This document shows, piece after piece, positions 13,573-64,000 of a stretch of DNA of 64,000 bases. The stretch's first letter is position 1. The number at the start of each line of letters is the position of its first letter. The position numbers were made by a program, and so were the translations under genes. Below the pieces are notes generated by a model. The model was not told where the DNA came from. It was given only the letters and a program-made list of their open reading frames with translations, and searched no databases. Source of the stretch: Leucoraja ocellata (taxonomy: Eukaryota); contig JAWMAR010000836.1 of assembly GCA_036785375.1 (NCBI GenBank), positions 186,001-250,000 of the forward strand. Reading direction: 5' to 3'.

Positions 13573-13716
13573 GACCGATATCCAGTGTACTTGTCAATCG
13601 CTTTGGTTGTCGTCCTGTGATGATGGTGGGAGGTTTATTTGCATCAGCGGGTATGATCCTGGGGTCACTGTGCACCAGCATCATCCAGATCTACCTTACG
13701 GTTGGCGTTATGACTG
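13573..13716 (+). CDS. slc16a3: MCT4 coding exon 2
   Basis: ttctaccAG|ga..., (G)[20 protein letters not shown]...VMTG, donor GTaagg at 13717; 144 nt, phase 1-1. Confidence 0.96.
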
Positions 13717-13768
13717 GTAAGGAGCTGTTAAAGCTAAAATGTAACTTTTTTTTAAATAAAGCTATATA

Positions 13769-15001: not shown

Positions 15002-16415
15002 TACATGGATATTAGAAATACGATCTGGGCCACTTAGGAAAGGATGAGGAACATCTGTAGGGAATGGTTCGTAAGTTCATTGCTGACCTGAAATGGTGAT
15101 CGTAGTAAGGGTCAGCCAGACTAAAGAAGGGTTCAGACACAAGGCCTTGCCTACTCCTTTTCTCCAGAGATGCTGCCCTGACCCACTGAGTTACTCCAGC
15201 ATTTAGTCTATCGTTTATTGTCACGTGTACAGAGTTATCGTGACTTTTGTTGCATGCGGGAAGACTATACACAATTGCAATCAAGCTGTCCACTGTGGTG
15301 TACAGATAAAGGGAATAACATTTTGTGCAAATTAAGTCGGGTAAATTGTCAGTTACTACCTTTTCATTTGGAAGGTAAAATCTTGTTATTGTCCACTGGT
15401 ACCAAGAATCACACACATCTACAACACTACTTCACCTATGATAATGTCAAATTAACCTCCCTTGGGTAGCTTACAACCCAACACTATGAACAATGAATTC
15501 TCCAATTTTATGTAACATCCCAATCAGCCCCCGCCCCCCCCCCCCCTCCCCCACCTTCCCTGTTTCCCTGTCTCCCACCTAGACAACATTAATTTCTCCT
15601 AATATCCCCATCTCCATCCACCCGCTCTGGCTTCCCATTTCAGTCCCCTTTCCTCGCCTCGCACCTTTTTATCTTTTCATCACTGGCCTTTTTCCAATCC
15701 ATCTGCCAATTATACTCTTCCTTGCTGGTATCTGGCTATCACTTGCCAGTCTTTGTCCCACCCCACCTATCTCTTCCAGCTTTCTCCCCACTACTCATCA
15801 GTCCGAGGAAGTATCTAGACCTGGAACATCACCAATTCACATCCTCCAGAAATGCTGCCTGACCCGAGTTACTCCAGTATTATACACAAAAATGCTGGAG
15901 AAACTCAGCGGGTGCAGCAGCATCTATGGAGAGAAGGAAATAGGTAACGCTTCGGGCCGAAACCGAAGGAAATGGGTAACTCCAGTATTATGTTTTTTTG
16001 TAAACCAACATCTGCAGTTCCTTGTCTGCAGAGATATCTTGATCGGTGCAGTGAGTTTGCCTTTGGCTCCAAACTCCAGTGCCCTTGCGCATTTCAATTC
16101 TCGTGTGGGAGGTTGTAAAAATAGCCTGCGCTGGGTCCAGTTGTCTAGTTAGAGTTGAAGATGCTGTTAGTGTTTGTACAGGCAGCAGAGCAACTGTATC
16201 CAGCCAATCGACCAAATTCCAATTTCCTATTGATCATCTTTTCACTAAAGATCAATATAGAATGAAAATGAGGATTTGAACTCGCAGGAAAGATTTAGGG
16301 GGAGATATACTATGATATTTAATATATCTGCATCCATGTATGCTTGCTTAAAATGAAACTGATTTCATTTAATTGTGAATAATCTCTCCTGATTACCCTA
16401 AAAGAAGTAATCAAA

Positions 16416-16733
16416 GGTGGTACAGTGATGCAATGGGTAGTGCTGCTGCCCCTAAAGTGCCAGAGACTCTGGTTTGATCCTGACCTCTGGTGCTGTCTGT
16501 GTGGAGTTTTCCCATTCTCCCTGTGACTGTGTGGGTTTCCTCCGGGTGCTCTAGTTTCCTTCCCACATTGTAAAGACGTGCGGTTTTGTAGATTAATTGG
16601 CTGTAAACTGTTCCTAGTGTGTAGGGAGTGGATGAGGAAGTGGGATAAACACAGAACTAGTGTGAACGGGTGATCGATGGTCGGCGTTGACTCGGTGGGC
16701 TGAAGCTTCCATGCTCGAAACTAAAACTAAACC
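16416..16733 (+). mobile_element. HE1-like V-SINE
   Basis: tRNA-like head, V-domain ctgtctgtgtggagttt...tgggtttcctccgggtgctc, (ctaaa)n tail. Other copies at ~5495-5860, 11370-11610, 12690-12910, 29252-29540, 29958-30245, 31320-31605, 32860-33070(-), 56400-56500(-), 57650-57905. Confidence 0.85.
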
Positions 16734-16753
16734 AAACTTGTTTTTTCTCCCAG

Positions 16754-17533
16754 GTCTGGGTCTGGCCTTGAACTTTCAACCATCCCTCATCATGATAAAC
16801 CGCTACTTTGACAAGCGACGGCCGTTAGCTAATGGCCTGACTGCAGCTGGGAGCCCCGTCTTTCTGTGTACCCTCTCACCGTTGGGCCAAGTACTGATCA
16901 AGACGTACGGGTGGCGAGGGGGCTTCCTCATCTTTGGGGGTCTGCTGCTCAACTGCTGTGCCTGTGCAGCTCTGATGAGACCACTGCGGCCAAGCGGCAA
17001 AGAGAAACCCCAGCTGAAAGAGGAGAAGGAGACACCAGTGAAGAAGCACAAAATGCAGCTGCTGGATTGCTCTGTTTTCAAGAACCGAGGTTTTCTCATT
17101 TACACCATCGCGGCGTCCGTCATGGTCTTTGGACTCTTTGTTCCTCCTGTCTTCGTCGTAAACTATGCAAAAGACTTGGGAATACCAGACACAGACGCTG
17201 CTTTCTTGTTATCCATCTTGGGATTCGTCGACATTTTCGCCCGCCCGCTCTGCGGTATTCTCGCGGGTACAAAGTTCATGCGCCCCCGATGTGTATATTT
17301 CTTTGGCTTTGCAATGCTCTTCAACGGGATCACTGATTTGGGCGGCTCCTTTGCTCACGATTATGTCGGACTGACAGTGTTCTGTATTTTCTTTGGAATG
17401 TCCTATGGAATGGTGGGCGCCCTGCAGTTCGAGGTGTTGATGGCCATTGTTGGAACCCAGCAGTTCCCCAGTGCGATCGGACTGGTGTTGTTGATGGAAG
17501 CCATGGCCGTGTTGGTAGGCCCACCAGGTGCTG
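16754..17533 (+). CDS. slc16a3: MCT4 coding exon 3
   Basis: ttttttctcccAG, [28 protein letters not shown]...DIFARP...LVGPPGAG, donor GTaagt at 17534; 780 nt, phase 1-1. Confidence 0.97.
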
Positions 17534-17998
17534 GTAAGTACATGTGCACGCGTGTGCGAGCGTGTTCACTCCAACATTAACAAGAAACAAAGGTGGGGGG
17601 GGGGGGGGGGGAAATTGAACAAAATGTTTCAATGACACAAATGGGGGGCAGGGGGGAGGAAGGAAGGAAGAATCATAAATGTGATTCCAGTGAGTCTATT
17701 CACCAGAGCAATCGGGAGTGGAGATACCAGAAGCAAAAACAAAGACTGGGAAGGGTAGATGTGGTGGAGTTGCAGACAATGAGGAAGGCAGTCAGAAGAA
17801 AAAGAGGGCTATAGACCAGCTGCAGAATAGGTGGAGAAATGGCAGATGGGGTTTAACCTGGGGAAGTGCAAGGTGTTGCAAACTGGGAGGTTGAATTCAA
17901 GGAGGGAGTATACAGTTAATGGAAAAACCGTTGCAGGCATTGATTGCAGAGGGATAGAAACATAGAGTCCAAGTTCATCGGTCACTATGGTGACAATA

Positions 17999-20371
17999 CA
18001 GGTGCACAACCTTTTATCCGAAGATCCAAATAACGAAAACCTCCGAATAGCGACATTTTTTCAGTCCTTGAAAAAAGGTCCTTGAAAACGTTCACGGAGG
18101 GCGGCCCGCAGAGGTGACAGAGGAACCTCCGGTCGGTCCTCGAAGAAAGGGGAACTAAATCCCCATCCATAAAAGAGAAGGTGAGGGTATATTGCGCGGG
18201 AGGGTTAATAATTGACAATCTGCTGCTGCCTGCCCGCTCAGTTAAAAAATTCCCACGGTAGACTCACGATACACAGTGGATCGTGAGTCTTGCATGAGAA
18301 CTTTTTATCTCAGCGGGCAGGCAGCAGCAAATTGTCGCTCCCTTACGTTTCACCCCACCTACACCCCTCTGCTTCCCGGCCATGTGTGTGACCCCTTCCC
18401 TCCCCTCTCCAGCTCCCCGCCCATTGCACCGGCGCGGGGGCTTTGCACTGCCTTCACGTCGGAGCTAGTGCCAGAGATGTCAGGCCCAACGGGACACCGA
18501 CCCCCAGGCCCACTGCAAGCACGGAGATCCCAGAGACCCGCAGCCAGCAGCAGCCCAGCCCCGTTCCAACTCCAGAGGAACACGCTCCCCGTAGGGACCG
18601 AAGCTGATGGTGTGCAAGGTGCGTCTTGGTCTTGAGGTTGCAGATGAGGGGGCGCAGCTCGGGCTGTGACGTCTCCGGCCACCCCCCTGTACAGGAGCTG
18701 AGACTGGGAACTGTGGGGTTGTTTGCAGTTGCAGAGGGAGGGGGCAAGGGCGGTACAGTTCCCAGTCTCAGCTCCATTCCAGGGGGGTGACCGGAGACTT
18801 CAGGACCAACGGGACACCGACTGCAAGCACGGAGATCCCAGAGACTCACAGCCAGCAGCAACTCTAGCCCAGCCCCGCTCCAACTCCAGAGGAACCCGGG
18901 TTGCAGATGAGGGGGCGCAGCTCGGGCTGTGGGCGAACTGCCACTTGTCGCCGTAGCGGCCCATCGGGGAGCGGGTTCCTGTTGGTCCTGACGTCTCCGG
19001 CCACCCCCCTGGACAGGAGCTGAGGGACGTCAGGACCAAAGATCCTAGAGGAGCTAGGATCTTTGGTCAGGACCACCAGAAGCCGCTCCCCGATGCGCCG
19101 CTACAGCGACAAGTGGCAGTTCGCCCACAGCCCGAGCTGTGCCCCCTCATCTGCCACCCGGGTTCCTCTGGAGTTGGAGCGGGGCTGGGCTGGACACCGA
19201 CCCCCAGGCCCACTGCAAGCACGGAGATCCCAGAGACTCACAGCCAGCAACAACTCTAGCCCAGCCCCGCTCCAACTCCAGAGGAAAACTGCGAACTAGC
19301 GGGAGACATCGGGACCACCAGAAGCCGCTCCCCGATGCGCCGCTACGGCGACAAGTGGCAGTTCGCCCACAGCCCGAGCTGTGCCCCCTCATCGGGACAC
19401 CGACCCCCAGGCCCACTGCAAGCACGGAGATCCCAGATCAGCAACTCCAGCCCAGCCCCGCTCCAACTCCAGAGGGGCAGCTGCTGCTGGTGCGTAAGGT
19501 GCGTCTTGTTCTTGAGGTCGCGCAGCTCGGGCTGTGGGCGAACTGCCACTTGTCGCCGTAGCGGCCCATCGGGGAGCGGATTCCTCTGGTGTTGGGGGTG
19601 GGGGGGGGAGGGGGAGGGGGGTATTGTGCTGTTTGATCGCCCCCTGCTATCCCAGGGACAGGGAAACAGGACGTTCACCGAGGGCGGCCCGCAGAGGTGA
19701 CAGCGGAACCTCCGGTCGGTCCTCGACGAAAGGGGAACTAAATCCCCATTCATAAAAGAGAAGGTGAGGGTACATTGACCGGGAGAGTAGGAATCCCAAG
19801 ACAAAGTTGAGTGAGCGTTCACCGAGGGTGGCCCGCAGAGGTGACAGGGAACCTCGGGTCGGTCCTGGAAGAAAGGGGAACTAAAAAGAGAAGTGGAGGG
19901 TATATTGCGCGGGAGGGTATATCGCCTACCTGGAAGAAACCAGACATTTTTTCCAGGATGTCTGCACACCAAAGCTCACGTTTGGCGCCTCTGCTGCACA
20001 CGGATATCAGAGTGTGAAAATGTCGCCTTAGGCCGCCTTAGGGCATGTAGCCCCGCTAGGGTGACATGAGTGCGGGAGGTGATTCAATGCTGCGGTCACA
20101 TTTACAAATTCAGGAACTCATTCAACACACTGCATTTCATACAGACATTTATTCTGCAAGAAAAAAACTACACTGAAGACTCAAACTCGCGACCGAGGAA
20201 CTGCCGGGATCAAGGCGCAAACTCGCGACCTTGCGGATATGAGCCGGGCACTCGACCACTGAGCCAGCCATTAAAATCTACGCTAAAAAATTTCCATTCC
20301 GAAGACCGACAAATTCCAAATTACGAAAAGTGTCTGGTCCCAAGGCTGTCGGATAAAAGGTTGTGCACCTG
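17999..20371. mobile_element. Second element of the same TIR family with a different interior
   Basis: Identical 22-bp TIRs and TA TSD; inserted in a CR1 fragment; scrambled GC-rich direct and inverted modules. Confidence 0.9.
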
Positions 20372-20373
20372 TA

Positions 20374-20985
20374 CAAGTAGATAGGGTGGTAAAGGTGGGA
20401 TATGGAATGCTTGTTTTCATTGCTAGGGGCATTGATTGAGTAAGAGTCGGGAAGTCAAGATGCAACTATAGGAATTTGGTTGGGCTGCATTTGGAATATC
20501 GTGTGCAGTCCTGTTTGCCTCATTACAGGTAAGGTGTAGAAGCTTTGGAGGGTATGCAGAGGAGGTCTATCAGAATGCTGCCTGGATTAGAGGCTTTCAA
20601 CTACAGGGAGAGGTTGGATAGACTTGAGATTGTTTTCTCTGCAACATTGGAGGTTGAGTGCAGATTTGTTAGAAGTATTTAAAATTATCTGGCATAGATA
20701 GGATAGACAGTCCGAACCTTTTCCCCCAGCATCAGAGGGCATAACAATGAGGTGCGAGGGAAAGTTTAATGGAATAGGCAGGGCAAGTTTTTACACACAG
20801 GTGGCAGGGCCTGGGATGCACTGCCATTGGTGGAGGCAGATACGATAGCGCTGTTTAAGATGCACATGGATATGCAGGGAACGGAGAGATATGGATTATG
20901 TGCAGGCAGAAGAACTCCATTCAGCTAGGCATCATGTTTGACACAAACATTGGGCTAAAGACCTGTTTTTGTACTATAGTGTTAT
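20374..20985 (+). mobile_element. Degenerate CR1 fragment (left part at ~17860-17996)
   Basis: Similarity by eye to the other CR1 RT 3' regions; similar decayed fragments at 12125-12440, 31870-32300, 33165-33630, 37615-38050, 39410-39785, 55110-55450, 60720-60930, 61945-62310. Confidence 0.7.
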
Positions 20986-21123
20986 ACGTTGCTGAGAATG
21001 ATCTTGAATACCTGCTTTAACCATGTGGGGTAAACTGTTTTTGCTTGAGCTGTTTGCTTGCATGAATGCTGGGTTTTGTGTGACGAAGGTATTAATTTTT
21101 CTTTTGCACTGTACCTGTTACAG

Positions 21124-21404
21124 GGAAACTGTTGGATTATACAAAGGTTTACAGGTATGTTTTTTACTTGGCTGGCACCGAGGTGCTCCTCTCGGCCCTG
21201 ATACTGACTGTCGGAAACTTTTTCTGCATAAGTGGGAAAGCTAAACCACCTGAGACTGAGCCGAAGGACGCTGTGCAAGAGGCGAGGCCAGGGGAGCTGG
21301 ACCAAGAGCAGGGAACTGTGGAATCTGTGGAAGTGGACCAGTTCCTGAAAAGCGACACGGAAGATAATGGGGAAATTGTGCCGACGCCCGAAACCAGCGT
21401 ATGA
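21124..21404 (+). CDS. slc16a3: MCT4 terminal coding exon
   Basis: ttacAG|gg aaa ctg ttg gat; GKLLDYTKVYRYVFYLAGTEV...TPETSV*. The C-terminal PETSV matches MCT4 rather than MCT3. Spliced CDS 1428 nt = 475 aa. Confidence 0.95.
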
Positions 21405-33864: not shown

Positions 33865-36205
33865 CAGGGCTGCCAAGAATGGGTGAGAGTTGGGAATTAG
33901 AAATTGCAAGGGGCCAAGCCCAATGGCGCGTAGCTCCTGTGGGGTGGGGTGGGGTGTTGGAGCTTGAAATTGTGCAATCTGGTGCACACTTTAGCGAGTC
34001 TTTTAACTTGCACTTGAATACAATATGCTTTAAATTGGATTAGCTATGAATAAGGTTAGGCTAAATTACATTCCACAGTAGAGCCAGGTTCCGATTGACA
34101 GGTGCAGCACATCAATGATCTTAGTGTATTCATGTGTGGAAATCAGATTTTAATCAAATACTTGCTCATGTTGACCAACCTGGGTCCCACTGCACACCGG
34201 GTACTCCTGACCCTGACTCCAGTTGCATACCTTCTCTCATTCCTGACCCTGAGTCCAGCCTTACACCCAGTACTATTCCAGACCTTGACTGGATGCACAC
34301 TTGCCTTGCTCCTAGCCCCTCTGCATTGACAATATATCTGGCCCACACATAAAGCCCCACAACTGACCCCCTGGACATAACCTATTACGTACAAGTCCAC
34401 AGGTGCTTATCTACTGCAGTAATCTTTTATGGGGCACTTCACTGACCCATTGGCGTCCTTGTTATCTAACATGCTAGTTACTTTGTCAAATAAGTCATCA
34501 ATTGGTTGAACACAATTTCTCATCCCTAAAATTATACTCACTCAGCTGTATAAGTATTCTGTTACCATTTCCTTCATTTTCCTAACAAACTGTCCTGAAG
34601 TCATTTTCACCCCCAATATCTCCAGTATTTTGGTGTCTTCCTCTCAGCTGGGACTTTTCCGCAAGATCTAATAACTATATATTTAAGCAATATTATTCTA
34701 TTAAATGTGTTAATATGAGAGTACATAATATTTTCTGTGGTATTCATAATACATATCATTCAAAATGATAAAAAGATCTTTATTTTGATTGCACCTACCA
34801 ACATGCGTACATTATTATATTACAGTTAATATGTACCAAAGGCAATTTTTTGTTCCATTGCTCATGAGATATTTTTGTTTCATTAATTAAACGAGATTGG
34901 AGACATTTCTATTCAACTTGTCAAAGGTATTTGAGGGGGGGTTTAGAAATAGTCAGTGAGGTAAACAAACATAATAGTTGTGTGGCAAATGACAATAGTG
35001 CTACCTTCCCAATATTTAATTGGAGGAAATAATGGGTTATCGGGGCTGTATGTTGTGACACCTTGCATGTCATTTTAATATTACACTTATCCCATCCCCC
35101 TGGATATTCCGGATTAATAAATTAAGGTTTTGTCAACTAATTACAAATCAATAACATTAGCCAACTCAGAAACATGAAGCGCTGAGCATTGGAATCCAGA
35201 CATCACGGACAACTGCCCTCTGTTCCCGCTCACATCTGGCAGTGCTCTCCGTCTGAACCAGGGGCCACGGAGCGATTTTGAAAGTGGGGAGGCTGAGCGA
35301 TCACTGATCACTGGCCTTGGGGATACACAGTGAGGGAGTGGAGCAACCGAGTGGGGAGAGGGTGTGGAAGGGGGGGGGGGGGGTGTCCCCTCTCATGGTA
35401 GGGACTTTTGAAATTTGATATATTAAAATCATGTTTTAGTGCATTGTAGAAGTATGATTTCAATGTTTTTTGTTTAAGTATTTAAGGTATAAAGTATGTT
35501 TAAGGGGTAACTTTTTCCACACAAAGGTGTATGGAATAAGTTGCCGGAGGAGGTAGTTGAGGCAGGGACTACCCAACATTTGAGAAACAGACCGATACAT
35601 GGATAGGACAGGTTTGGAGGTATGGACAAAAAGCAGGTAGCGTAGCTGGGACATGTTGGCGGGTGTGGGCAAGTTGTGCCGAAGGGCCTGTTTTCACACT
35701 GTATCACTCTATGACTACATTATACCTCCACCATGCATGAATGCTTCAAAATCAAGTGGCTTGAGTTTTATTTCCATATACTCAAGCATAGAAACATAGA
35801 AAATAGATGCAGGAATAGGACATCGGCCCTTCGAGCCAGCACTGCCATTCAATATGATCATGGCTATTCATCTAAAATCAGTACATCTTTCCTGTTTTTC
35901 CCCCATATCCTTTGATGTTGTTAGCCCCAAGAGCTAAATGTATCTCCCTTAAAAACATCCAGTGAATTGACCTGCACTGCCTTCTGTGGCAGAGAATTCC
36001 ACAGATTCACAACTCTCTGCGTGAAGAAAGTTTGTCCTCATCTCAGTCCTAACTGGCCCCCCCTTTATTCTTAAACTGTGACCCATGGTTCTGAACGCCC
36101 CCAACATCGGGAACATTTTTCCTGCAGTTACAGTAAGTGAAAATCTAGCAGGCAAGCAGGATGCTTCCTCCATCCACCCCCATTTGAAGCTCACTATCTG
36201 CCACC
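33865..36205 (+). repeat. Copy 1 of the CAGGGCTG element (right-truncated)
   Basis: Colinear with 42768-45610 over >2 kb with indels, including shared embedded CR1 fragments. Confidence 0.85.
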
Positions 36206-36444: not shown

Positions 36445-36511
36445 TCATTCTTTGTGCTTTTGAGAGTTTCCTGGCTCTCTCCATCGACACTTGCATACAA
36501 ATGTTACAACA
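36445..36511 (-). CDS. Uncharacterised membrane protein, last coding exon (end of TM and cytoplasmic tail)
   Basis: tctttattgttcttcgacAG; phase-2 join gives C-VVTFVCKCRWREPGNSQKHKE*, continuing the hydrophobic helix followed by basic stop-transfer residues. Confidence 0.65.
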
Positions 36512-37412
36512 CTGTCGAAGAACAATAAAGATTAGATTATTCAGAAGATATTTCTTAAACTTTCCNNNNNNNNNNNNNNNNNNNNNNNNNNNNNNNNNNN
36601 NNNNNNNNNNNNNNNNNNNNNNNNNNNNNNNNNNNNNNNNNNNNNNNNNNNNNNNNNNNNNNNNNNNNNNNNNNNNNNNNNNNNNNNNNNNNNNNNNNNN
36701 NNNNNNNNNNNNNNNNNNNNNNNNNNNNNNNNNNNNNNNNNNNNNNNNNNNNNNNNNNNNNNNNNNNNNNNNNNNNNNNNNNNNNNNNNNNNNNNNNNNN
36801 NNNNNNNNNNNNNNNNNNNNNNNNNNNNNNNNNNNNNNNNNNNNNNNNNNNNNNNNNNNNNNNNNNNNNNNNNNNNNNNNNNNNNNNNNNNNNNNNNNNN
36901 NNNGACAGGTTGGAATGATCTTTGCAAGGGCCATCTGTGAGTTTTCTTCCAATACATCCTAGATTGGGAGGGAGAGATAGATCAGGCATGATTGAATGGT
37001 AGAGTAGACATGATGGGCCGAATGGCCTAATTCTGCACATATTGTCCATTGTCTCTGGGGAACGATGTGCGGGCTCTGGACAGAGGGTCCAGGAACAAGT
37101 GAGTTAACGTTTACGATGAGCGTTTGTCGGCGCTGGGCCTGTACTCGCTGGAGTTTAGAAGAATGGGGGGGGGGGGGGCACCTAATTGAAACTTCACCCG
37201 AACAGTGAAAGGCCCGGATAGAGTGGATGTGGAGAGGATGTTTCCACTGGTGGGAGAGTCTAGGACCAGAGGGCGCAGCCTCAGAATTAAAGGACGTTCC
37301 TTTAGGAAGGAGATGAGGAGGAGAGAGAGAGGGAGAGGGGGAAGAGAGAGAGAGAGGAGGAGGAGGAGGTAGGGAGGGAGGGAGGGAGGGAGGGAGAGAG
37401 AGGTAAACATAC

Positions 37413-37485
37413 CATCCAACGATAACGATGATGATCGGAGTGACGATCCCAACACAAATCCAATATATGGCATCAGTTGACAGAC
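37413..37485 (-). CDS. Uncharacterised membrane protein, transmembrane exon
   Basis: tttcccatccAG / GTatgt; LSTDAIYWICVGIVTPIIIVIVG; 73 nt, phase 1-2. Confidence 0.7.
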
Positions 37486-39007
37486 CTGGATGGGAAACAT
37501 GACTTCAATATCTGATCCCTCCCCCTCCCTCTTTCTCTCTCTCCTCCCCCCATCTCTCTCTCCCCATCTCTCTCACCCCCCTCCCCCCCCACCCTCTCTC
37601 TCTCTTCTCTGTCTCAGTGGATTGAGTTTAGAAGTTGGGAGGTCACGTTGCAGTTGTACAAGATGTCGGTGAGACCATGTTTAGAATATTGTGTTCAGTT
37701 CTGGGCACCGCATTACAGGAAAGATGTCGTCGAGCTTGGAAAGGGCGCGGAGAAGATTTACGAGGATGTTGCCGGGACTCGAGGGGCATGAGCTACAGGA
37801 AGAGGTTGGGGCAGGCGGGGACACTATTCCTTGGAGCTCAGGATGATGAGCGGCAATCGTATAGAAGCGTACAAAATCACTAGAGGAATAGATCGGGTAG
37901 ACGCACAGTCTCTGTCCAGAGTAGGGAAAACAAGGACCAGAGGACATGGGTTTAAGGTGGGGGGGGGGAGGGAGATTTAATAGGCCAACATTTCCACACA
38001 GAGGGTGGTAGGTGTACGGAATGAGCTGCCGGAGGAGGTAGTTGAGGCTTGGACTAGCTCAGATAATCCCACAGATTCACCACCCTCTGGCTAAAGAAAT
38101 TCCTCCTCATCTCCTTCCTAAAGGATCATCCTTAAAACATCACCATAATTAATGAGACTGTTTAAACACCTTAAGTTTAATTAAATGCTATGTTAGGGAG
38201 GAATGGAATTATATATCATAATTCCAAGAATTATCCCTAAATGTAAAAATTGCAATTCACAGTCAGAAGAAAAAAGCTACCTTGCATTAAACAGTCCATG
38301 AGTGGGGAGAAGAAAATGTTTCTTTCCCGCAACAGTTATATTGCAAATGTTTTAATTTTACAATATAACTACCAGGATATCCTATGTATATATATATATA
38401 TCATTTATAAATCACACAATATATATAGTGCATATAATATAAACATTCATGCAGACTTATCCATAACAATCTGTCCTGGAATTCTCTAACTCAAAAATAG
38501 TCCCATTATAAAAGTTTGATTTATAATACATCTTGTGATTCGAGGACCAGAGGACACGGGTTTAAGGTGGGGGGGGGGGGGGGGGGTAAGATTTAATAGG
38601 ACAACTTTTCCACACAGAAGGTGGGTGGGTGTATAGAACGAGCTGCCGGAGGAGGTAGTTGAGGCAGGGACTATCACTACACTTGGACAGGTACATGGAT
38701 AGGACAAGTTTGGCGGGATATGGGCCAGACGTGGGCAGCAGGTGGGACTAGTGTAGATGGGACATGTTGGGCCGAAGGGCCTGNNNNNNNNNNNNNNNNN
38801 NNNNNNNNNNNNNNNNNNNNNNNNNNNNNNNNNNNNNNNNNNNNNNNNNNNNNNNNNNNNNNNNNNNNNNNNNNNNNNNNNNNNNNNNNNNNNNNNNNNN
38901 NNNNNNNNNNNNNNNNNNNNNNNNNNNNNNNNNNNNNNNNNNNNNNNNNNNNNNNNNNNNNNNNNNNNNNNNNNNNNNNNNNNCCCTCCCTCCCTCCCTC
39001 CCTCTCT

Positions 39008-39155
39008 CCACTTTTCCACCCAGAGTGTTGTGAATCTGTGACCATTTGGGACTGTGATGAGGAGAAACTTTTCCACCCAGAGTGTTGTGAATCTGTGGCC
39101 ATTTGAGACTGCGATGAGGAGAAACGTTTCCACTCAGAGTTGTGAGTCTGTGGAA
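39008..39155 (+). repeat. CR1-derived ~57-bp tandem repeat (about 2.5 units, next to a gap)
   Basis: Unit ttttccacccagagtgttgtgaatctgtg.ccattt..gactg.gatgaggagaaac. Confidence 0.75.
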
Positions 39156-39926
39156 TTCTCTGCCTCAGAGGACAGTGGAGGCCGGTTCTCTGGATACTTT
39201 CAAGAGAGAGCTAGATAGAGCTCTTAAACACAGTGGAGTCAGGGGATATGGGGAGAAAGCAGGAACGGGGTACTGATTGTGGATGATCAGCCGTGATCAC
39301 ATTGAATGACGGTGCTGGCTCGAAGGGCCGAATGACCTACTCCTGGCACCTATTGTCTATTGGTTGGTGCAAAATTTGAACCACCATAGAAACCTCTCTC
39401 TCTCTCTCTCCCTCCATACACCCACCACCTTCTGTGTGGAAATGTTGCCCCTCAGGTTCCTATTCAATTTCTCCTGCCCCCTGTATCTCTCACATTAAAC
39501 CCATGTCCTCTGGTTCTTGATTCCCCTACTCTGGGCAAGTGACTCTATGCATCTACACAATCTATTCCTCTGGTGATTTTGTACACCTATATAAGATCAC
39601 CTCATCCTCCTGCACTCCAAGGAATATAGTCCCAGCCTGCCCCAAACTCTCCCTGTAGCTCAGGCCCCTCGAGTCCCAGCAACATCCTCATAAATCTTCC
39701 CCGCGCCCTTTCCAGCTCGACGACATCTTTCCTGTAAACGATGCCCCAGAACTGAACACAATACTCTAAATGCGGCCTCACCACCAATTGTCAGGAAATT
39801 AACAGTCAGGAAAAAAAGCTGTCATGCATTTGAACAGTCCAAAGCAGGGGAGATAAAATTGTTTCTTCCCCACAGCATGCAGGAAACATTCTTATTAAAT
39901 TATATAATATGATTAGCAGAACATAC

Positions 39927-39942
39927 TCAATATTGCCATGAT
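39927..39942 (-). CDS. Candidate 16-nt microexon of the membrane protein gene
   Basis: tctttgtttatAG / GTatgt; IMAIL+a, phase 0-1, which is the phase needed to join exon 3 to the TM exon. Confidence 0.35.
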
Positions 39943-40120
39943 CTATAAACAAAGACATTGGACCTACGTTTGAAAATTAGCCGTGTTTCAATGCCATTCT
40001 GTGAATAAAATTGAACAGAGTTAATAACTTTGTATAAAAATGAGAGAGAGGGAGAGAGAGTGATAGAGAGGGAAAGGGGGGAGGGAGAGAGAGATTTAAT
40101 GATATTTAGTTATTACTTAC

Positions 40121-40216
40121 ACAAAAATAATGACGTTCAATAATATGGCATCCAGTAAACGCTGTTTTGTTTATCATCGGTGGGATACAACCTAGATCAT
40201 CGCAAACTACTGTTTC
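40121..40216 (-). CDS. Uncharacterised membrane protein, exon 3 (Cys-rich)
   Basis: ctgtctctccAG / GTaagt; only frame 0 is open: ETVVCDDLGCIPPMINKTAFTGCHIIERHYFC; 96 nt, phase 0-0. Confidence 0.7.
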
Positions 40217-40487
40217 CTGGAGAGACAGGGAGAGAGAGTGAGAGAGGGGAGAGGGAGGGAGAGGGAGAGGGACAAAGGGGAAGAGACGGGGGGGGGGGGG
40301 GGTTGAGACAGAGGGGGAGGAGAGACAGGTAGAGGAGGCATTAGTATCAGTTTCTCATACTCCCAAAATTGCTCAACCCCTCCACCTCCCTCTTCCCCCC
40401 CCCTCCCCAATCTCTTGCTCTCTCCCCCCCTCCCTCTCTCTCTCTCTCTCTCTCAATCAAAGTTACACAGAGATAAAAAATACTTAC

Positions 40488-40597
40488 ATTAATTAAAATA
40501 TCATCTCGTTGGCAGTTTTGGAAAGACTGGATTTGTGGGATAGCTTGAACTCCTGAATCTTTACACGTGTAATGTTTTTCCTCTGTGATGACATTTC
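40488..40597 (-). CDS. Uncharacterised membrane protein, exon 2
   Basis: ttttggtttAG / GTaagt; (G)NVITEEKHYTCKDSGVQAIPQIQSFQNCQRDDILIN; 110 nt, phase 1-0. Confidence 0.7.
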
Positions 40598-41082
40598 CTA
40601 AACCAAAATAGTGCATTTGAGTTGAGTGTAGTTTATTGTCCCGTGTACCGAGCGAGGTACAGTGAAAAGCTTTCTTGTCACGTGCTCTCCAGTCAGTGGG
40701 AAGACTGTACATGATCACAATCAAGCCGTCCACAGTATAGATACAGGATGAAGGGAATAACGTTTAGTGCAAGGTAAAGTTCATTAAACTAAAGAGTTTC
40801 CTGTTGAACTACAATCATCTTCTAAAATCATCATCACATTTGTCCTCCCTCACTCTCACTTACAAAGTGTCTTCCTCTCTCTCCCCCGCTCTCTCTCTCC
40901 CTCTCTCTCCCCTATGTCTCTCTCCCTCTTTCTCCCCCTCTCTCGCTCCCTCTTTCACCCCCCTCCCGCACTCTTTCTCTCTTTCCCCTCTCTCTGTGCC
41001 CCCCTCCCTCACGAACACACTCAAAACTCTCATTCACATACACACACAGTAAAAGTTAAGGGAATGGGGAGGGAGGGAGTGT

Positions 41083-41519
41083 GGAAATTTCTCGGAACAA
41101 CGTACTCTCTCCCTCCCTCTCTCTCTCCCCTCCCTCTCCTCTCTCCCCTCTCTCTCTCCCTCTCTCTATCTCTCTCAAACTTTCCGAAACTTTCCAAGAC
41201 TCTCTCAAAACTTTCTCAACCTTCCCCACCCCCTCCCTCCCTCACCCTCCCTCCCCCCCTCCCTCCCTCACCCTCCGACTCCTTTCACCTGAAGAGAAGA
41301 CGTAAGTGAGAGTGAAGAGGGAACAGAGTAATATTCCAGAGGCGAAATTCTTCCAGGAGACATTTCTTCCAGACATCTTCCCGTGGAGTGCAGAACGTGG
41401 AGAATGGCGATCAGCTGGAAGGTGAGGGAGTGAGAGGCCTGGAAACTTCCTCTCTCCCTCTCTCCGCCTGTCGGTGTGGGGAGAGAGCAGAGCGTGTTGG
41501 GGCGTGTAGTCCTGACTCA
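41083..41519 (-). promoter_or_regulatory. Putative promoter / first-intron motifs of the membrane protein gene
   Basis: AP-1 TGACTCA 41513-19, GC-box-like GGGGCGTGT 41499-507, NF-kB-like GGAAACTTCC 41441-50, overlapping GGAAATTTC and GAS TTCTCGGAA 41083-97; motif matches only. Confidence 0.35.
41289..41376 (-). CDS. Uncharacterised type I membrane protein, exon 1 (signal peptide)
   Basis: aagATG MSGRNVSWKNFASGILLCSLFTLTYVFSS-G, donor GTgaaa; 88 nt, phase 1. Confidence 0.65.
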
Positions 41520-42767: not shown

Positions 42768-45700
42768 CAGGGCTGCCAACATTGGGTGAGAGTTGGGAGT
42801 GAGAAATTGTGAGAGACCAAGCCTAAGGGACCGTAGCGACCGGGGGTGGGAGGGGGGGGGGGGGGGGGGGGGGTGGGCAAGAGGGACACCCCCCCCCCTC
42901 CCATTGGTACAGAGCTTTTGCATTTTTCAGTTTGAAATTGTGCAATCTGGTGCATACTGTAGCGAGTCTTTTAACTTACACTTGAATGCAATATTTATGC
43001 TTTAAATTGAATTAGCTATGAACAAGGTTAGGCTAAATTACATTCCTAATTATATTCCACAGTAGAGCCAGGCTCTGATCAACAGGTGCAGCACATGAAT
43101 GATCTTAGTGTATTCATGTATGAAAATCAGATAATAATCAAACACTTGGTCCATGTTGACCAACCTGGGTCTCACTGCACACCTGGTACTACTCCTGACC
43201 CTGACTCCAGTTGCATATCTTCTCTCATTCCTGACCCTGAGTCCAGCCTTACACCTGGTGCCCTATTCTACCCTGATCATAGCTCCTTATCTGCTTAGGT
43301 TCCCAGTGCTGAACATTCCCATTGTCCCAGCTTTGACTGCACACCTTGTACTATTCCAGACCTTGACTCTGGATGCACACTTGGCCTTGCTCCTAGCCCC
43401 TCTGCATTGACAATATATCTGGCCCACACATAAAGCCCCATATCTGACCTATTTAACCTATTACGTTCAAGTCCACAGGTGCTTATCTACTGCGGTAATC
43501 ATTTATGGGGCAATTCACAGACCAAATTATCTATAACATAATTTGCTACATCCATTGGCTTCCTTGTTATCTAACATGCTAGTTACTTTGTCAAATAAGT
43601 CATCAATTGGTTGAACACAATTTCTCATCCATAAAATTATACTCACTCAGCTGTATAAATATTCTGTTACCATTTCCTTCATTTTTCTAACAAACTGTCC
43701 TGAAGTCATTTTCACCCTCAATATTTTCAGTACTTTGCTATCTTCCTCTCAGCTGGGGCTTTTCCGAAATGCAAAGTCTAATAACTATATATTTGAGCAA
43801 TATTATTCTATTTAATGCGTTAATATGAGAGTACATAATATTTTCTGTGGTATTCATAACACAACAATGATAAAAATATCTTTGTTTTGATTGTGCCTAC
43901 CAACATGCATACATTAATATATTACAGTTAATAAGTACAGAGGGCAAATTTTTGTTCCATTGCTCCCCATTCCCAATTACTTTTACTTTGAAGTGATTGA
44001 AATCCAAGTGAAGTTGAAATGGCATCAGAAAAATAAAACCTCTGGAATGGATGATATTCATTACATGGTTGGTTGGAGTCAGTATCAGCACAATTACTAT
44101 ATTAAACTTTGAATCTTCAGATGTCCTGGTTCAAGTTAAAACTAAAGACAGATAATAACCTTCTCACATGTTCCCCTACAAGTATCTCTGTCACTCCTTT
44201 AAAATATGCCCCTTCTTTGAACAAGCTCTTAAACATCGCATCTGAATCAGTTTCCATCTGATTACACTCCATGCGGATGTTCATCTACGTGTTCAATTAA
44301 TCAAACAATGAGATTGGGGACATTTCTATTCAACCTGTCAAAGGAATTGGGGGAGGGGGGTTAGAAATAGTCAGTGAGGTAAACACACAGAATAGTTGTG
44401 TGGCAAATGACAATAGTGCTACCTTCCCAATATTTAACTGAAGGAAATAATGGGATGTCAGGGCTGTATATTGTGACAGACAGCCTGACACCTTGCATGT
44501 CATTTTTAATATTACACTTATCCCATCCCGCTGGATATTCCGGATTAATAAATTAAGGTTTTGTCATCTAATTACAAATCAGACTAATTACAAATCAATA
44601 ACATTAGCCAACTCCGAAACACGAAGCGCTGAGCATTGGAATCCAGACATCACGGACAACTGCCCTCTGTTCCCCGCTCACATCTGGCAGTGCTCTCTGT
44701 TGAACCAGGGGCCACGGAGCGTTTTTGAAAGTGGGGAGGCTGAGCGATCACTGATCACTGGCCTTGGGGATACCCAGCGAGGGAGTGGAGCAACCGAGTG
44801 GGGGTGTCCCCCACCCACCGTAGGGACCTTTTTGAAATTTGATGTATTAATATCATGTTTTAGTGCATTGTAGAAGTATGATTTCAATGTTTTTTGTATG
44901 AAGTATTTTTAAGAGGTAACTTTTTAAGGGGTAACATTTTTCACATAAAGGGTGATGGGTGTATGGAACAAGCTGCCAGAGAGGTAGTTGAGGCAGGGAC
45001 TATCCCAACATTTGAGAAACAGTTAGACTGATACATGGATAGGACAGGTTTGGAGGTATGGACCAAAAGCAGGTGGCGTAGCTGGGACATGTTGGCGGGT
45101 GTAGGCAAGTTGTGCCGAAGGGCCTGTTTTCACACTGTATCACTCTATGACTACATTATACCTCCACCATGCATGAATTCTTCAAAATCAAGTGATCGAG
45201 TTTTATTGCCATATATTCAAGCATAGAAACATAGAAAATAGGTGCAGGAATAGGCCATTCGGCCCTTCGAGCCAGCACCGCCATTCAATATGATCATGGC
45301 TATTCATCTAATATCAGTACCTCTTTCCTGTTTTTTCCCCCATATCCCTTGATTTTGCTAGCCCCATGAACTAAATGTAACTCTCTCTTGAAAACATCCT
45401 GTGAATTGGCCTCCACTGCCTTCTGTGGCTGAGAATTCAACAGATTTACAACTCTTTGTGTGAAGAAAGTTTGACCTCATCTCAGTCCTCACCATCCTAC
45501 CCTTTATTCTTAAACTGTGACCCCTGGTTCTGAACTCCTCCAACATCAGGAACAATTCTCCTGCAGTTATATTAGTGAAATCTACCATTTGAAGGCCACT
45601 ATCTTCCACCGTTTCTACCCAGTGCTTGGTACTTACTTCCAGCAGCCCCTGGTTGTCTTCCAGGATGCACCGAGCCGCAGCCTGATTCATGCCGGTCACC

Positions 45701-50136: not shown

Positions 50137-50340
50137 TTACTCTGTGTAAAAGGAAAACTGTGCGTTCACCCTCTCTATTGCCCTCGTGATTTTAGATCAC
50201 CCTTGTGTGATCATACCTTAGCCTCCTGCGCTCTAAGGGATAAAGTCCTAGCCTGCCCAACCTCTCCCCATAGCTCAGACCCTTGAGTCTTGTTAACATC
50301 CTCATGAATCTTCTCTGCACTCTTCCCAGTTGAATGATAT

Positions 50341-52802
50341 GTAGTAAGCACAAGGTAGTGATTGTGGGAGATTTCAATTTTCCACACATAGACTGGGAAA
50401 CACATTCTGTAAATGGGCTGGATGGGTTGGAGTTTATAAAATGTGTGCAGGATAGTTTTTTGCAGCAATACATAGAAGTACCTACTAGAGAAGGGGCAGT
50501 GCTGGACCTCCTGTTAGGAAATGAGACGGGTCAGGTGGCAGAGGTATGCGTTGGGGAACAGTTCGAGACCAATGATCACAATACCATTAGTTTCAATATA
50601 ATTATGGAGAGAGTCAGAACTGGACCTAGGGTTGAGATTTTTGATTTTGGAAAGGCTAACTTTGAGGAGATGCGACAGGATTTAAAAGTAGTAAATTGGG
50701 ACAGTTTGTTTTATGGGAAAGATGTGGAAGAGAAATGGAAGACATTTAAAGGTGAAATTTTAAGAGTACAGAATCGTTATGTCCCTGTTCGGTTGAAAGG
50801 AAATAGTAAAATTTGGAAAGAGCCCTGGTTTTCAAGGGAAATTGGACACTTGGTTCGGGAAAAAGAGAGAGATCTACAATAATTATAGGCAGCATGGAGT
50901 AAATGAGGTGCTTGAGGAGTATAAAGAATGTAAAAAGAATCTTAAGAGAGAAATTAGAAAAGCTAAAAGAAGATATGAGGTTGCTTTGGCAAGTAAGGTG
51001 AAAGTAAATCCAAAGGGTTTCTACAGCTATATTAATAGCAAAAGGATAACGAGGGATAAAATTGGTCCATTAGAGAGTCAGAGTGGACAGCTATCTGCAG
51101 AGCCAAAAGAGATGGGGGAGATTGAACAATTTCTTTTCTTCGGTATTCACCAAGGAGAAGGATATTGAATTATGTGAGGTAAGGGAAACAAGTAGAGTAG
51201 CTATGGAAACTATGAGATTCAAGAAGAGGAAGTACTGACAGGTCCGGACAGGATATTCCCTAGGACATTGAGGGAAGTTAGTGTAGAAATAACAGGGGCT
51301 ATGACAGAAATATTTCAAATGTCATTAGAAACGGGAATAGTGCCGGAGGATTGGCGTACTGCGCATGTTGTTCTATTGTTTAAAAAGGGGTCTAAGAGTA
51401 AACCTAGCAATTATAGACCTGTTAGTTTGACGTCAGTGGTGGGCAAATTAATGGAAAGGATACTTAGAGATAATATATATAAGCATCTGGATAAACAGGG
51501 TCTGATTAGGAACAGTCAACATGGATTTGTGCCTGGAAGGTCATGTTTGACTAATCTTCTTGAATTTTTTGAAGAGGTTACCCGGGAAATTGATGAGGGT
51601 AAAGCAGTGGATGTTGTATATATGGACTTCAGTAAGGCCTTTGACAAGGTTCCTCATGGAAGGTTGGTTAAGAAGGTTCAATTGTTGGGTATTAATGGTG
51701 GAGTAGCAAGATGGATTCAACAGTGGCTGAATTGAGATGCCAGAGTGTAATGGTAGATGGTTGTTTGTCAGGTTGGAGGCCAGTGACTAGTGGGGTGCCA
51801 CAGGGATCTGTGTTGGGTCCACTGTTGTTTGTCATGTAGATCAATGATCTGGATGATGGTGTGGTAAATTGGATTAGTAAATATGCAGATGATACTAAGA
51901 TAGGTGGGGTTGTGGATAATGAAGTCGATTTTCAAAGTCTACAGAGAGATTTATGCCAGTTGGAAGAGTGGGCTGAAAGATGGCAGATGGAGTTTAATGC
52001 TGATAAGTGTGAGATGCTACATCTTGGCAGGACAAATCAAAATAGGACGTACATGGTAAATGGTAGGGAATTGAAGAATGCAGGTGAACAGAGGGATCTG
52101 GGAATAACTGTGCACAGTTCCCTGAAAGTGGAATCTCATGTAGATAGGGTGGTAAAGAAAGCTTTTGGTGTGCTGGCCTTTATAAATCAGAGCATTGAGT
52201 ATAGAAGTTGGGATGTAATGTTAAAATTGTACAAGGCATTGGTGAGGCCAATTCTGTAGTATGGTGTACAATTTTGGTCGCCTAATTATAGGAAGGATGT
52301 CAACAAAATAGAGAGAGTACAGAGGAGATTTACTAGAATGTTACCTGGGTTTCAGCAACTAAGTTACAGAGAAAGATTGAACAAGTTAGGGCTTTATTCT
52401 TTGGAGCACAGAAGGTTAAGGGGGGACTTGATAGAGGTCTTTAAAATGATGAGAGGGATAGACAGAGTTGACGTGGATAAGCTTTTCTCACTGAGAGTAG
52501 GGAAGATTCAAACAAGGGGACATGACTTGAGAATTAAGGGACAGAAGTTTAGGGGTAACATGAGGGGGAACTTCTTTACTCAGAGAGTGGTAGCTGTGTG
52601 GAATGAGCTTCCAGTGAAGGTGGTGGAAGCAGGTTCGTTTTTATCATTTAAAAATAAATTGGATAGTTCTATGGACGGGAAAGGAATGGAGGGTTATGGT
52701 CTGAACGCAGGTGTATGGGACTAGGGGAGAATACGTGTTCAGCACGGACTAGAAGGGTCGAGATGGCCTGTTTCCGTGCTGTAATTGTTATATGGTTATA
52801 TG
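50341..52802 (+). mobile_element. CR1 LINE ORF2 (endonuclease C-terminus and RT), disrupted
   Basis: VIVGDFNFPHIDW, NYRPVSLTSVVGK, DFSKAFDKV, YADD motifs with stops, frameshifts and an internal deletion; TSD GATAT; nested in an older minus-strand CR1. Confidence 0.95.
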
Positions 52803-59141: not shown

Positions 59142-60022
59142 TTACACAAAAAAGCTGGAGAAACTCAGCGGGTGCAGCAGCATCTATGGAGCGAAGGAAA
59201 TAGGCAACGTTTCGGGCCGAAACCCTTCTTCAGACTGATCGGGGGCGGGGGTGGGTGGGGACAAGAAAGGGAAAAGGAGGAGGAGCCCGAAGGCTGGGGG
59301 ATGGGAGGAGACAGCAGGGGGGCTGAGGAAGGGGAGGAGACAGCAAGGACTAACAAAATTGGGAGAATTCGATGTTCATGCCCCCGGGGTGCAGACTCCC
59401 CAAACGGAATATGAGGTGCTGTTCCTCCAATTTCCGGTGCTGCTCGCTGTGGCCATGGAGGAGACCCAGGACAGAGAGGTCGGAGACGGAGTGGGAGGGG
59501 GAGTTGAAGTGCTGAGCCACAGGGAGGTCAGCTTGGTTATTGCGGACCGAGCGGAGGTGTTCGGCGAAACGATCGCCCAACCTCCGCTTGGTCTCACCGA
59601 TATAGATCTGCTGACATCTATAGCAGCGGACGCAATAGATGAGGTTGGAAGAGATGCAGGTAAACCTCTGTCGCACCTGGAACGATTGCTTGGGTCCTTG
59701 AACGGAGTCGAGGGGGGAGGTAAAGGGACAAGTGTTGCATCTCTTGCGGTTGCAAGGAAAAGTGCCCGGGGAGGGGGTGGACCGAGAGGGAAGGGAAGAA
59801 TTGACAAGGGAGTTATGGAGGGAGCGGTCTTTGCGGAAGGCAGATATGGGGGGAGATGTGGCGAGTGGTGGGGTCACGTTGGAGGTGGCGAAACTGACGG
59901 AGGATTACTTTTTGTATGTGACGGCTGGTGGGGTGAAAGGTGAGGACTAGGGGGACTCGGCCCTTGTTGCGAGTGCGGGGATGGGGAGAGAGAGCAGTGT
60001 TGCGGGGTATTCTTAAACAGAA
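59142..60022 (-). mobile_element. Penelope-like element 3' part with GIY-YIG endonuclease
   Basis: ORF 59350-59877 with CNRKRCNTC...NLIYCVRC...IYIGETKRRLGDRFAEH; 16-bp TSD CAGCATCTATGGAGGG. Confidence 0.9.
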
Positions 60023-61940: not shown

Positions 61941-62419
61941 AAGAAATAGGTGGGGAATTAGGCCATTCAGCCCGTCCATTTTTCCCTCTCAACCCCATTC
62001 TCCTTTCTCACAGTAACCGTTAACACCCTTACTAATCAAGAACCTGTCTTTAAAAATATCCAATGACTTGGCAATAAATCCCAGATTTACCACCCTCTGG
62101 CTAAAGAAAATCCTCCTCATCTTCTTTCTAACGGTATATCCTTTTATTCTGAGACTGTGCCCTCTCGTCCTAGACTCTTCCACTCTCCAGGACTTTCATT
62201 ATTCAGTAAATTTCAATGAGATCCCTTCTCATCCTTCTGAACTCCAGCAAGTACAGGCCCAGAGCCGCCAAACGCTCATCATATCTTGACCCAATCATTC
62301 CTGGGAACCCTCATCAGTATAGATTGTTAAGTTAAAAACCTCAAAATAAAAATTAGAAAGATTCCAACAACGTAGAATTTTAGAACAAAACAGGAGAACC
62401 CATTACAAGTTATTATGAA

Positions 62420-64000
62420 TTTATTTACATTTTTTAAGTACACAAATACAGCTGCAATACAAATAGGTCACCAGCATTTGTTACCATCACATGTTATACA
62501 CAGACATTCTAGAGGGGAAACCAGCCACCTGAGATACTGATGGTCCATCCACGCAAAATAAAAGTTGGAAGAGTCCATTGTCTTGGAGGCACCACCAGTT
62601 AGAAAGAAAACATTGATTCTCAAGTCTCAGCCTCTAGGGTGAAACATTAATTTAACCACACACACGCATATTTACAAAATAAAAACTGAGGGGCTGCTGA
62701 AACAAAATGGGGAGCCTGGGGGTAACGATGACAGCCGTGCTGTGCTCCTGTTTAACACGTCAGTGCGCGCGCATGCACATATGGTGAGGCATTGCTGACA
62801 TCCCTCCAGATGCCCATCCATGCGACCTCCCAAAAGGCTGGTGAATTACAAACCTGGCTGTTACAAACAAAAAAGGGCCTAGACTGTGCATAGGATGAAG
62901 CACGCGCACATACACACACACACATCCATGAGTTCGGCTGAACTTCCTCCATTCCTTCAGCTACCTGAAACTATACCAATGGCCAAGAATTCTTATAAAA
63001 CTCAATTTTAAGCTGAAACTTTTGAATTGTTGTCACTTGTAAACATTTAAAAACAAAATCAAGATATAGGTTTAGAAGCCGCGCACTGGAATGTAAAATT
63101 TCACCAGCACCCCCCCCCCCCCCAAGCTAATGGCAGAATTCACATTTTAACTGTACAAATCCTTCACAGCTCTGTTTAAAAGACCTTGCTACGCCTAAGT
63201 GATTAATGGAGATGCTACAAATCCTTAGGATAGGGAATCCCGAGACAAACTCGATACCAACACTAATCAGAAATTAAAAAAATAATTCACCAAAACACAG
63301 CTTTACCTTAACTTTTTAAAAAAACTTTATTCTTCCACATTTTCATTTTTAAGGTCACAGTTTTTGATAAGCCTTGGCACTGCCATTTTCCCTGTGCGTT
63401 GTCAGTGTCTTCCACAAGATGCCAAATGGCCACTGGCATCAATCAGCATTCAGGTTTCATGACAAAAATAAAATGTGGAAGTTAAAAAGTGTGCAAACAA
63501 ATCTAGATACTAAACCAAAAAACATTAATTGTTACAGTGTACTACCAAAAAACATTTTTAAACTCAAGTTTAATACAAAAAGACTGGAAAAAGCTTTTAA
63601 ATAAAATCAGCTGCATTTTAAATTCACAAACACTCACTGCCAACCCTACGTATGACAGGATTTTTCAAGTCAGTCAATTCTCATTTCAGATTCTCAGACC
63701 TCTAGAGCATCACAGACATAGGCTGGACAACATTCTACTTTTCTACACCGATGCTGCTGTCAAATTTAGAAGGGCAATACAAAATATTTAAACCAGGTAT
63801 AGTCTACGTTGTACAGTAGAGTAATAAAAGGCTACATTACGCCAATCATGGAAGGAGAAGGGATGGCGATACCTATTCTATTTGCGGTAAATTCTGTAAA
63901 CCGTCTTTAGAAAACCACCCCGCTGCTGAAGCAGTGGGCACAATCTTTTAACGTATCTTATACTGCAGTCAGGCAAAAGGTCTCCTTGCAAAGATGTTCC
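62420..64000 (-). other. Probable 3' UTR of a convergent gene (csnk1d by human synteny)
   Basis: Repeat-free stretch, U-rich on the minus strand, AATAAA at 62420-25(-); CSNK1D lies tail-to-tail with SLC16A3 in human; no coding exon seen. Confidence 0.35.

Follow-up and report, generated by a model that had tools for sequence, protein, structure and literature searches.

Several described systems of immunoglobulin (Ig) type offer points of comparison for the gene reported here, which lies on the minus strand of a 64,000-nucleotide stretch of the genome of the skate Leucoraja ocellata (assembly GCA_036785375.1, contig JAWMAR010000836.1, positions 186,001 to 250,000; hereafter the window). In skates themselves, the MDIRs are described as multigene Ig-superfamily receptors, activating and inhibitory, that resemble CD300, TREM and pIgR (PMC3031540); unlike the MDIRs as they are described there, the protein of the window gene has no activating or inhibitory signalling feature. 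FCRLS is a described Ig/SRCR chimera of mammals (PMC7940838) and is likened to the skate gene by that description only. SECTM1, described as a ligand with an Ig-like fold, an atypical disulfide and both membrane and secreted isoforms (PMC4603632), would be the nearest functional analogue of the ligand role that we propose, but it is reported there to be eutherian-specific and we found no sequence link to it. The LILR, KIR and PIR receptors and the HIDE1-like Ig domains are of the same C2 type as the second domain of the skate orthologues, whereas the skate protein differs from LILR, KIR and PIR in having a single such domain behind an unrelated cysteine-rich domain, no immunoreceptor tyrosine-based inhibitory motif (ITIM) and no charged membrane residue.

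As judged from sequence, the locus is a real, uncharacterised multi-exon gene for a small type I surface glycoprotein of Ig type that is probably also secreted. An earlier note on this DNA had proposed that several exons here encode a type I membrane glycoprotein whose six-cysteine ectodomain belongs to no named family, and these features are borne out. Its further claim that the gene is hidden does not hold, as the gene has already been predicted as an uncharacterised protein in two skate genomes.

Gene model and orthologues in two other skates

With exon 2 and a few flanking codons as the query, the search returned two matches among two candidates: P0004, isoform X2 of the uncharacterised LOC129708432 of Leucoraja erinacea (229 aa), and P0005, the uncharacterised LOC116988104 of the rajid skate Amblyraja radiata (267 aa). 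Exons 1-3 are 91-94% identical to P0004 (tblastn, E 1e-20 to 1e-14), far beyond chance, and the exon 4 peptide shares 9 of its 10 residues with each of the two orthologues (scores 45 and 44). The tail exon likewise matches both orthologues by tblastn and by exon scoring; 5 further nucleotides of it would lie inside the N gap into which it runs, if both orthologues are a guide. On this sequence evidence the window gene is the orthologue, in a third skate, of LOC129708432 and LOC116988104: the correspondence covers exons 1-4 as well as the tail exons, at about 90% identity in the case of L. erinacea, while the two database models differ in that they include an Ig domain, lack the membrane exon and read their tails in other frames. 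No second exon set for the gene was found anywhere within the 64-kb window.

The earlier note had chained six exons into a protein of 149 aa. Five of these exons (88, 110, 96, 73 and 67 nt) lie where it had placed them, with AG/GT ends, and the parts of its protein contributed by exons 1-3 and the membrane exon stand; the middle join and the tail are wrong or unsupported. The 16-nt microexon at that join scores only at background (12-15) in all three frames against five of five relatives, and the orthologues use the 31-nt exon 4 instead. Only 25 nt separate the microexon from the exon 4 donor, so both cannot be used together. Both disputed junctions keep the reading frame and have canonical ends, and the hydropathy of the earlier join is higher (Kyte-Doolittle (KD) 2.81), so that they remain conceivable as minor isoforms.

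The signal peptide and membrane anchor are predicted from hydropathy, which finds an N-terminal hydrophobic segment and one hydrophobic helix, as befits a type I membrane glycoprotein. The N-terminus encoded by exon 1 is conserved in all relatives and has a hydrophobic 15-mer of KD 1.82. The helix fits entirely inside the 73-nt exon, where the best 19-mer reaches KD 2.49 and includes no charged residue, and hence the proposed helix is present but need not be split over two exons. The six ectodomain cysteines and the two N-glycosylation sequons, one of them across the exon 2/3 junction, all recur in the L. erinacea protein (Table 1).

Table 1. Exons of the skate gene, sequence gaps inside it and the disputed microexon, in window positions
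Feature	Position	Strand	Description
Exon 1	41376-41289	minus	88 nt, ends in phase 1; start codon with A at -3; predicted signal peptide
Exon 2	40597-40488	minus	110 nt, phase 1-0; Cys 1-2, first part of Cys domain
Exon 3	40216-40121	minus	96 nt, phase 0-0; Cys 3-6, one sequon, Tyr-x-Cys motif
Exon 4	39998-39968	minus	31 nt, phase 0-1; end of Cys domain; canonical AG/GT; absent from the earlier model
Microexon proposed in the earlier note	39942-39927	minus	16 nt; canonical ends, unsupported by relatives
N gap inside gene	38784-38983		200 N
Transmembrane exon	37485-37413	minus	73 nt, phase 1-2; helix without charged residue
Juxtamembrane/tail exon	36958-36904	minus	55 nt called, enters N gap 36566-36903; absent from the earlier model
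Second N gap inside gene	36566-36903		truncates tail exon
Last exon	36511-36445	minus	67 nt; AG/GT ends

The two extracellular domains

After exon 3, both orthologues continue with the exon 4 peptide and then with an Ig domain, which is recognised by Pfam Ig_2 in two of two (35.1 and 33.7 bits; cut-off 27) and so places the locus in the immunoglobulin superfamily. The view that the protein belongs to no recognisable family therefore holds for the cysteine-rich domain, which is without a Pfam family, but not for the orthologues as a whole. The best sequence matches of an orthologue in the PDB are LILRB2 (E 4e-8 over the whole chain, with weak matches for single stretches), PirB, LILRB1, LILRB3 and KIR3DL1; the Pfam family Ig_C19orf38 matches the second domain at E 0.002, below its cut-off. 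The best single-domain match of the second domain is to an Ig repeat of P0007 (47% over 96 aa), and it is 44% identical to Ig repeats of P0016 and P0009. These three proteins combine SRCR and Ig domains, and the skate protein shares with them a weak SRCR-like cysteine spacing, but unlike them it is small and has no Pfam SRCR domain. Like P0006, P0013 and P0029, they are large and unnamed and contain both SRCR domains and HIDE1-like Ig repeats, and we found no literature on such mosaics in teleosts.

In the window, the Ig exon of the orthologues gave no tblastn match in the called bases, which include the 2482-nt intron apart from its 200-N gap. Downstream of exon 4 and ahead of the membrane exon, an Ig exon could be concealed nowhere but in that gap, and we consider that it probably lies there; by inference from the orthologues it would measure about 300 nt with phase 1-1, and gap lengths are estimates.

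The first domain spans about 75 residues over three exons, with six cysteines and two sequons. No Pfam family was found for it, either in single window exons (0 of 4) or in the relatives scanned, and no solved relative was found by sequence. It also bears no Ig sequence signature, there being no Pfam Ig match and no Trp in exons 2-4; only a Tyr-x-Cys motif is present, which lies close to the end of the domain in five of five relatives examined and which we take to correspond to that of the Ig F strand. An AlphaFold model of the paralogue P0166, built from six sequences, is all-beta at residues 44-109, with seven strands and without a helix, and has a predicted local distance difference test (pLDDT) score of 61-69 over residues 51-110, and the membrane helix is also predicted. 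When this model was compared with 48161 chains in a wide structural search, 10 reached Z 5 and none Z 8, and 47 of the 50 matches listed were Ig-superfamily chains by title (Z 4.6-5.7, root-mean-square deviation about 3, mostly 65-79 residues aligned). The best match has Z 5.7 and a deviation of 3.1 over 72 residues; those of Ig type include nectin-2, SLAM, CD80, CD166 and CD48, and a second structural comparison concurs. No SRCR chain was among the structural matches listed, although that fold is still conceivable. We favour, as reasonably probable, a shortened Ig-like sandwich for the first domain, and hold an SRCR origin to be unlikely. Matches to Kelch, whose totals add up repeats that score 8 bits or less each, and to MHC class II, at E about 1, were rejected.

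Paralogues, membrane anchor and tail

A HMMER search with the whole protein against 1.84 billion representatives gave 510 matches at E 0.001, and among the best 150 of these nearly all are multi-Ig proteins; P0083 matches the N-terminal half at 47%. Since multi-Ig proteins crowd these best 150 of 510 matches, relatives in sharks or bony fish could still exist. A profile search returned 15 matches among 1640 candidates, all in the same two skates and at four loci, adding A. radiata LOC116978047 (at least 12 isoform records) and L. erinacea LOC129706155 (P0166). The two added loci have no Ig domain. Both resemble the window gene in their signal peptide, cysteine-rich domain (38-47% identity), start of the membrane exon and tail exons, but differ in having a short stalk of 9-residue repeats between the cysteine-rich domain and the membrane segment, an extra segment next to the membrane, and several variants of the membrane segment itself. 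Over 120 aa, P0166 shares 38% of its residues with the window protein (E 7e-16), and it has six cysteines in a spacing similar to that of the window; LOC116978047 has five cysteines, the third being lost. The window membrane exon matches the paralogues P0160 (score 54) and P0166 (score 41), and because it matches the membrane exons of the paralogues it can be tied to the window gene, though it is missing from the orthologue models. By sequence, the gene belongs to a small family of type I glycoproteins in skates, none of them characterised.

The isoforms of LOC116978047 (P0083 and P0155-P0165) vary in the number of stalk repeats, in the membrane segment and in the N-terminus, a variety which suggests either tandem paralogues fused into one locus or unusually modular splicing. 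No paralogue-like stalk exon was found among 49 phase 1-1 candidates in the window. Residues 145-164 of P0166 weakly resemble the translation of a dispersed repeat at window positions 35991-36050 (55% over 20 aa, E 0.086), hinting that the juxtamembrane peptide of the paralogues comes from an exon made from a repeat. In a feature search of the ESM Atlas with P0166, the top places went to unnamed clusters from chordates, about 200 aa long (score 0.93), and 11 of the 30 matches have no common Pfam family. Shuffled proteins reach 0.9 in 4-10 of 100 cases in this search, and we regard its result as a lead towards a family wider than the skates. The cysteine-rich domain of P0004 gave no usable match in the Atlas, and the candidates TMEM156 and C17orf78 were set aside, as both score below 0.9 and are without Pfam support.

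Both orthologue models lack the membrane exon and contain no hydrophobic segment (KD at most 1.1), and their products, being without a helix, would be secreted. Both also join the tail exon to the last exon. Of the tail exon, one frame agrees with P0004 (score 90) and a different one, in part, with P0005 (52); P0005 is matched in two different frames, which points to an indel that shifts the frame between skates. For the last exon, the frame that fits P0005 (100) is not the one that fits the paralogues (54, 53 and 43), and this paralogue frame meets a TAA at 36506-36504, the second full codon. The frame drawn earlier for the last exon, which stops at 36447-36445, is used by no relative (scores 17-31, against 43-54 for the paralogue frame). 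When spliced to the membrane exon, the window reads the tail exon in the third frame and, if that exon is 60 nt long, ends in the frame drawn earlier for the last exon, so that the C-terminus of the earlier note may be the product of this species, though it is common to no relative. No convincing exon that would restore the frame between the membrane and tail exons was found in a search of the window. Neither the ITIM nor the corresponding activation (ITAM) or switch (ITSM) motif was found in either possible tail, in any frame of the last exon or in three of three paralogue tails.

Surroundings, interpretation and significance

The gene is flanked on both sides by a direct repeat of about 2.3 kb (33865-36150 and 42768-45587, 80-87% identity), of which a third window copy exists for only 549 of 2286 bases; the repeat may be the sign of a tandem duplication, or of the gene having been inserted here. 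Within the introns, a segment of 82 nt is present in two copies on the minus strand, at 39877-39797 and 38334-38254 (77% identity, as high in 0 of 500 shuffles). The flanks of the two copies are not significantly alike, no Rfam match was found on the segment, and it is possibly a trace of internal duplication resembling the stalk repeats of the paralogues. That the duplicate contains a decayed exon 4 was unsupported (194 of 500 shuffles scored equally high). Rfam found nothing at gathering score within the window; an intronic small nucleolar RNA was rejected, since the 117 sub-threshold matches around the gene fall mostly on GA/CT tracts and none lies over the duplicated segment. On the plus strand, about 13500-21400 holds exons of an SLC16 monocarboxylate transporter (MFS_1; MCT2 at E 4e-80), which we take to be SLC16A3, with GC-rich imperfect palindromes inside its introns at 13916-14875 and 18863-19583. 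The minus strand of about 62400-64000 is repeat-poor, resembles an untranslated region and ends near an AATAAA at about 62424; to judge by gene order, the 3' end of CSNK1D may lie here. Reverse-transcriptase-like retroelement remnants were recognised from their translations at 8585-9571, 50300-52800 and 59350-59900.

Taking these data together, we lean, by a modest degree, towards the view that the gene is a skate orthologue encoding an Ig-type, non-signalling surface ligand or decoy with a secreted isoform. Here, the signal peptide would lead a compact cysteine-rich domain of about 75 residues with two glycans, which most likely, though the paralogue model supports this weakly, is a shortened Ig-like sandwich with non-canonical disulfides. 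The second domain, of the C2 type, follows in both orthologues, and this locus probably acquired it, as a phase 1-1 exon, from a large gene of the SRCR-plus-Ig mosaic kind; exon gain is preferred because the paralogues have only a short stalk at that place, and capture of a symmetric exon appears the simplest reading, a loss in the paralogues being also conceivable. The uncharged helix would anchor the protein, and skipping of the membrane exon would give the secreted form. The absence of a signalling motif, the unconserved tail frame and the putative secreted form together argue for action outside the cell: rather than being a signalling receptor itself, the protein would serve a different surface receptor as ligand, adhesion partner or soluble decoy, and immune recognition is a plausible setting for this.

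Several observations weigh against this interpretation. No Ig exon was found in the called bases of the window, and the 200-N gap is shorter than such an exon; the orthologue proteins are predicted database gene models, and the immune role is putative. As for the fold, the P0166 model has a mean pLDDT of 48 and stands for a paralogue only, no structural match reaches Z 8, and a Foldseek search of the PDB and viral models gave no match at E 0.001. An AlphaFold run on an orthologue, from two sequences, did not fold (pLDDT 29). A profile of the first domain scored at background against 120 Ig domains (13.4, against a shuffled maximum of 14.4), while the SRCR profile was slightly above background (19.0 against 15.7).

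This last result bears on an alternative that we consider unlikely, in which the cysteine-rich domain would derive from an SRCR domain by truncation and re-wiring, the gene itself being a fragment of a mosaic scavenger receptor of the SRCR-plus-Ig kind. Three of the five non-self matches, among those listed, that start in the N-terminal part are SRCR-repeat proteins, cysteine spacings of 12 and 4 align together with a Cys-x-Gly-x-Glu motif, the profile score of 19.0-19.7 exceeds all 40 column shuffles, and the closest relatives of the second domain are found in SRCR-plus-Ig mosaics. Yet the per-domain scores are just 9-19 bits and the hhalign probability is 8.5-11%; against 88 SRCR domains from 35 proteins that were not chosen on likeness to the first domain, it is 8.5%, with the score of 19.0 resting on 16 aligned columns. 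An SRCR domain has about 100 residues, while the skate domain has about 75, none of the seven relatives scanned has a Pfam SRCR match, the third cysteine is lost in one paralogue, and the P0166 model, at its middling confidence, has strands at the position of the SRCR helix.

Independently of the fold, the Ig exon may truly be absent here, which we think somewhat doubtful; the product would then be a short one-domain membrane protein near the architecture proposed in the earlier note and that of the Ig-less paralogues. The lack of an Ig match in the intron outside a gap shorter than the roughly 300 nt needed, the in-frame joining of exon 4 to the membrane exon and the existence of Ig-less relatives are consistent with this, but both orthologues, from two genera, have the Ig domain, the other gap demonstrably takes in exon sequence and gap lengths are estimates, and the window offers no stalk exon of the paralogue kind among its in-phase candidates. 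That the membrane form is decaying, in a recently duplicated locus on its way to becoming secreted-only or a pseudogene, would account for the early stop in the paralogue-matching frame of the last exon, the two frames in which the tail exon matches P0005 and the missing membrane exon of both orthologue models; against it, the reading frame is intact through exons 1-4 and the membrane exon, all of which have canonical splice sites and are about 90% identical to L. erinacea, and we judge it distinctly improbable. A distant relative of CD7 or SECTM1, retained beside SLC16A3 and CSNK1D, is suggested by the neighbouring monocarboxylate-transporter gene, as these four genes adjoin in mammals. This is the least probable of the alternatives by far, given the missing sequence link, the reported restriction of SECTM1 to eutherians, the failure to identify CSNK1D in the window and the location of the paralogues on other, longer contigs.

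Returning to the preferred Ig-type reading, a more far-reaching version of it can be offered tentatively, with the odds against it: the first domain would represent an undescribed miniature Ig-like family (about 75 residues, three exons, three disulfides) on small type I proteins, extending beyond skates, and in skates one copy would have captured a LILR-type Ig exon from an SRCR-plus-Ig mosaic and would now be shifting from the membrane to a secreted decoy. We found no mention of the four locus identifiers in the literature searched, supplementary files, which might list the loci in expression tables, being outside that search; topic searches, judged by title and the start of the abstract and with most subscription papers outside their reach, returned nothing on this skate family.

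The architecture itself is ordinary, the gene was already predicted elsewhere, its function is putative and nothing is overturned. No lineage with antibody-based immunity is older than the cartilaginous fish, and descriptions of their non-rearranging surface receptors are sparse. The family changes fast: its compact domain is unclassified, its stalks and membrane segments vary, and an Ig exon seems to have been captured. It would thereby be a small case of exon shuffling, and it is a reasonable candidate for an immune ligand or decoy of skates.

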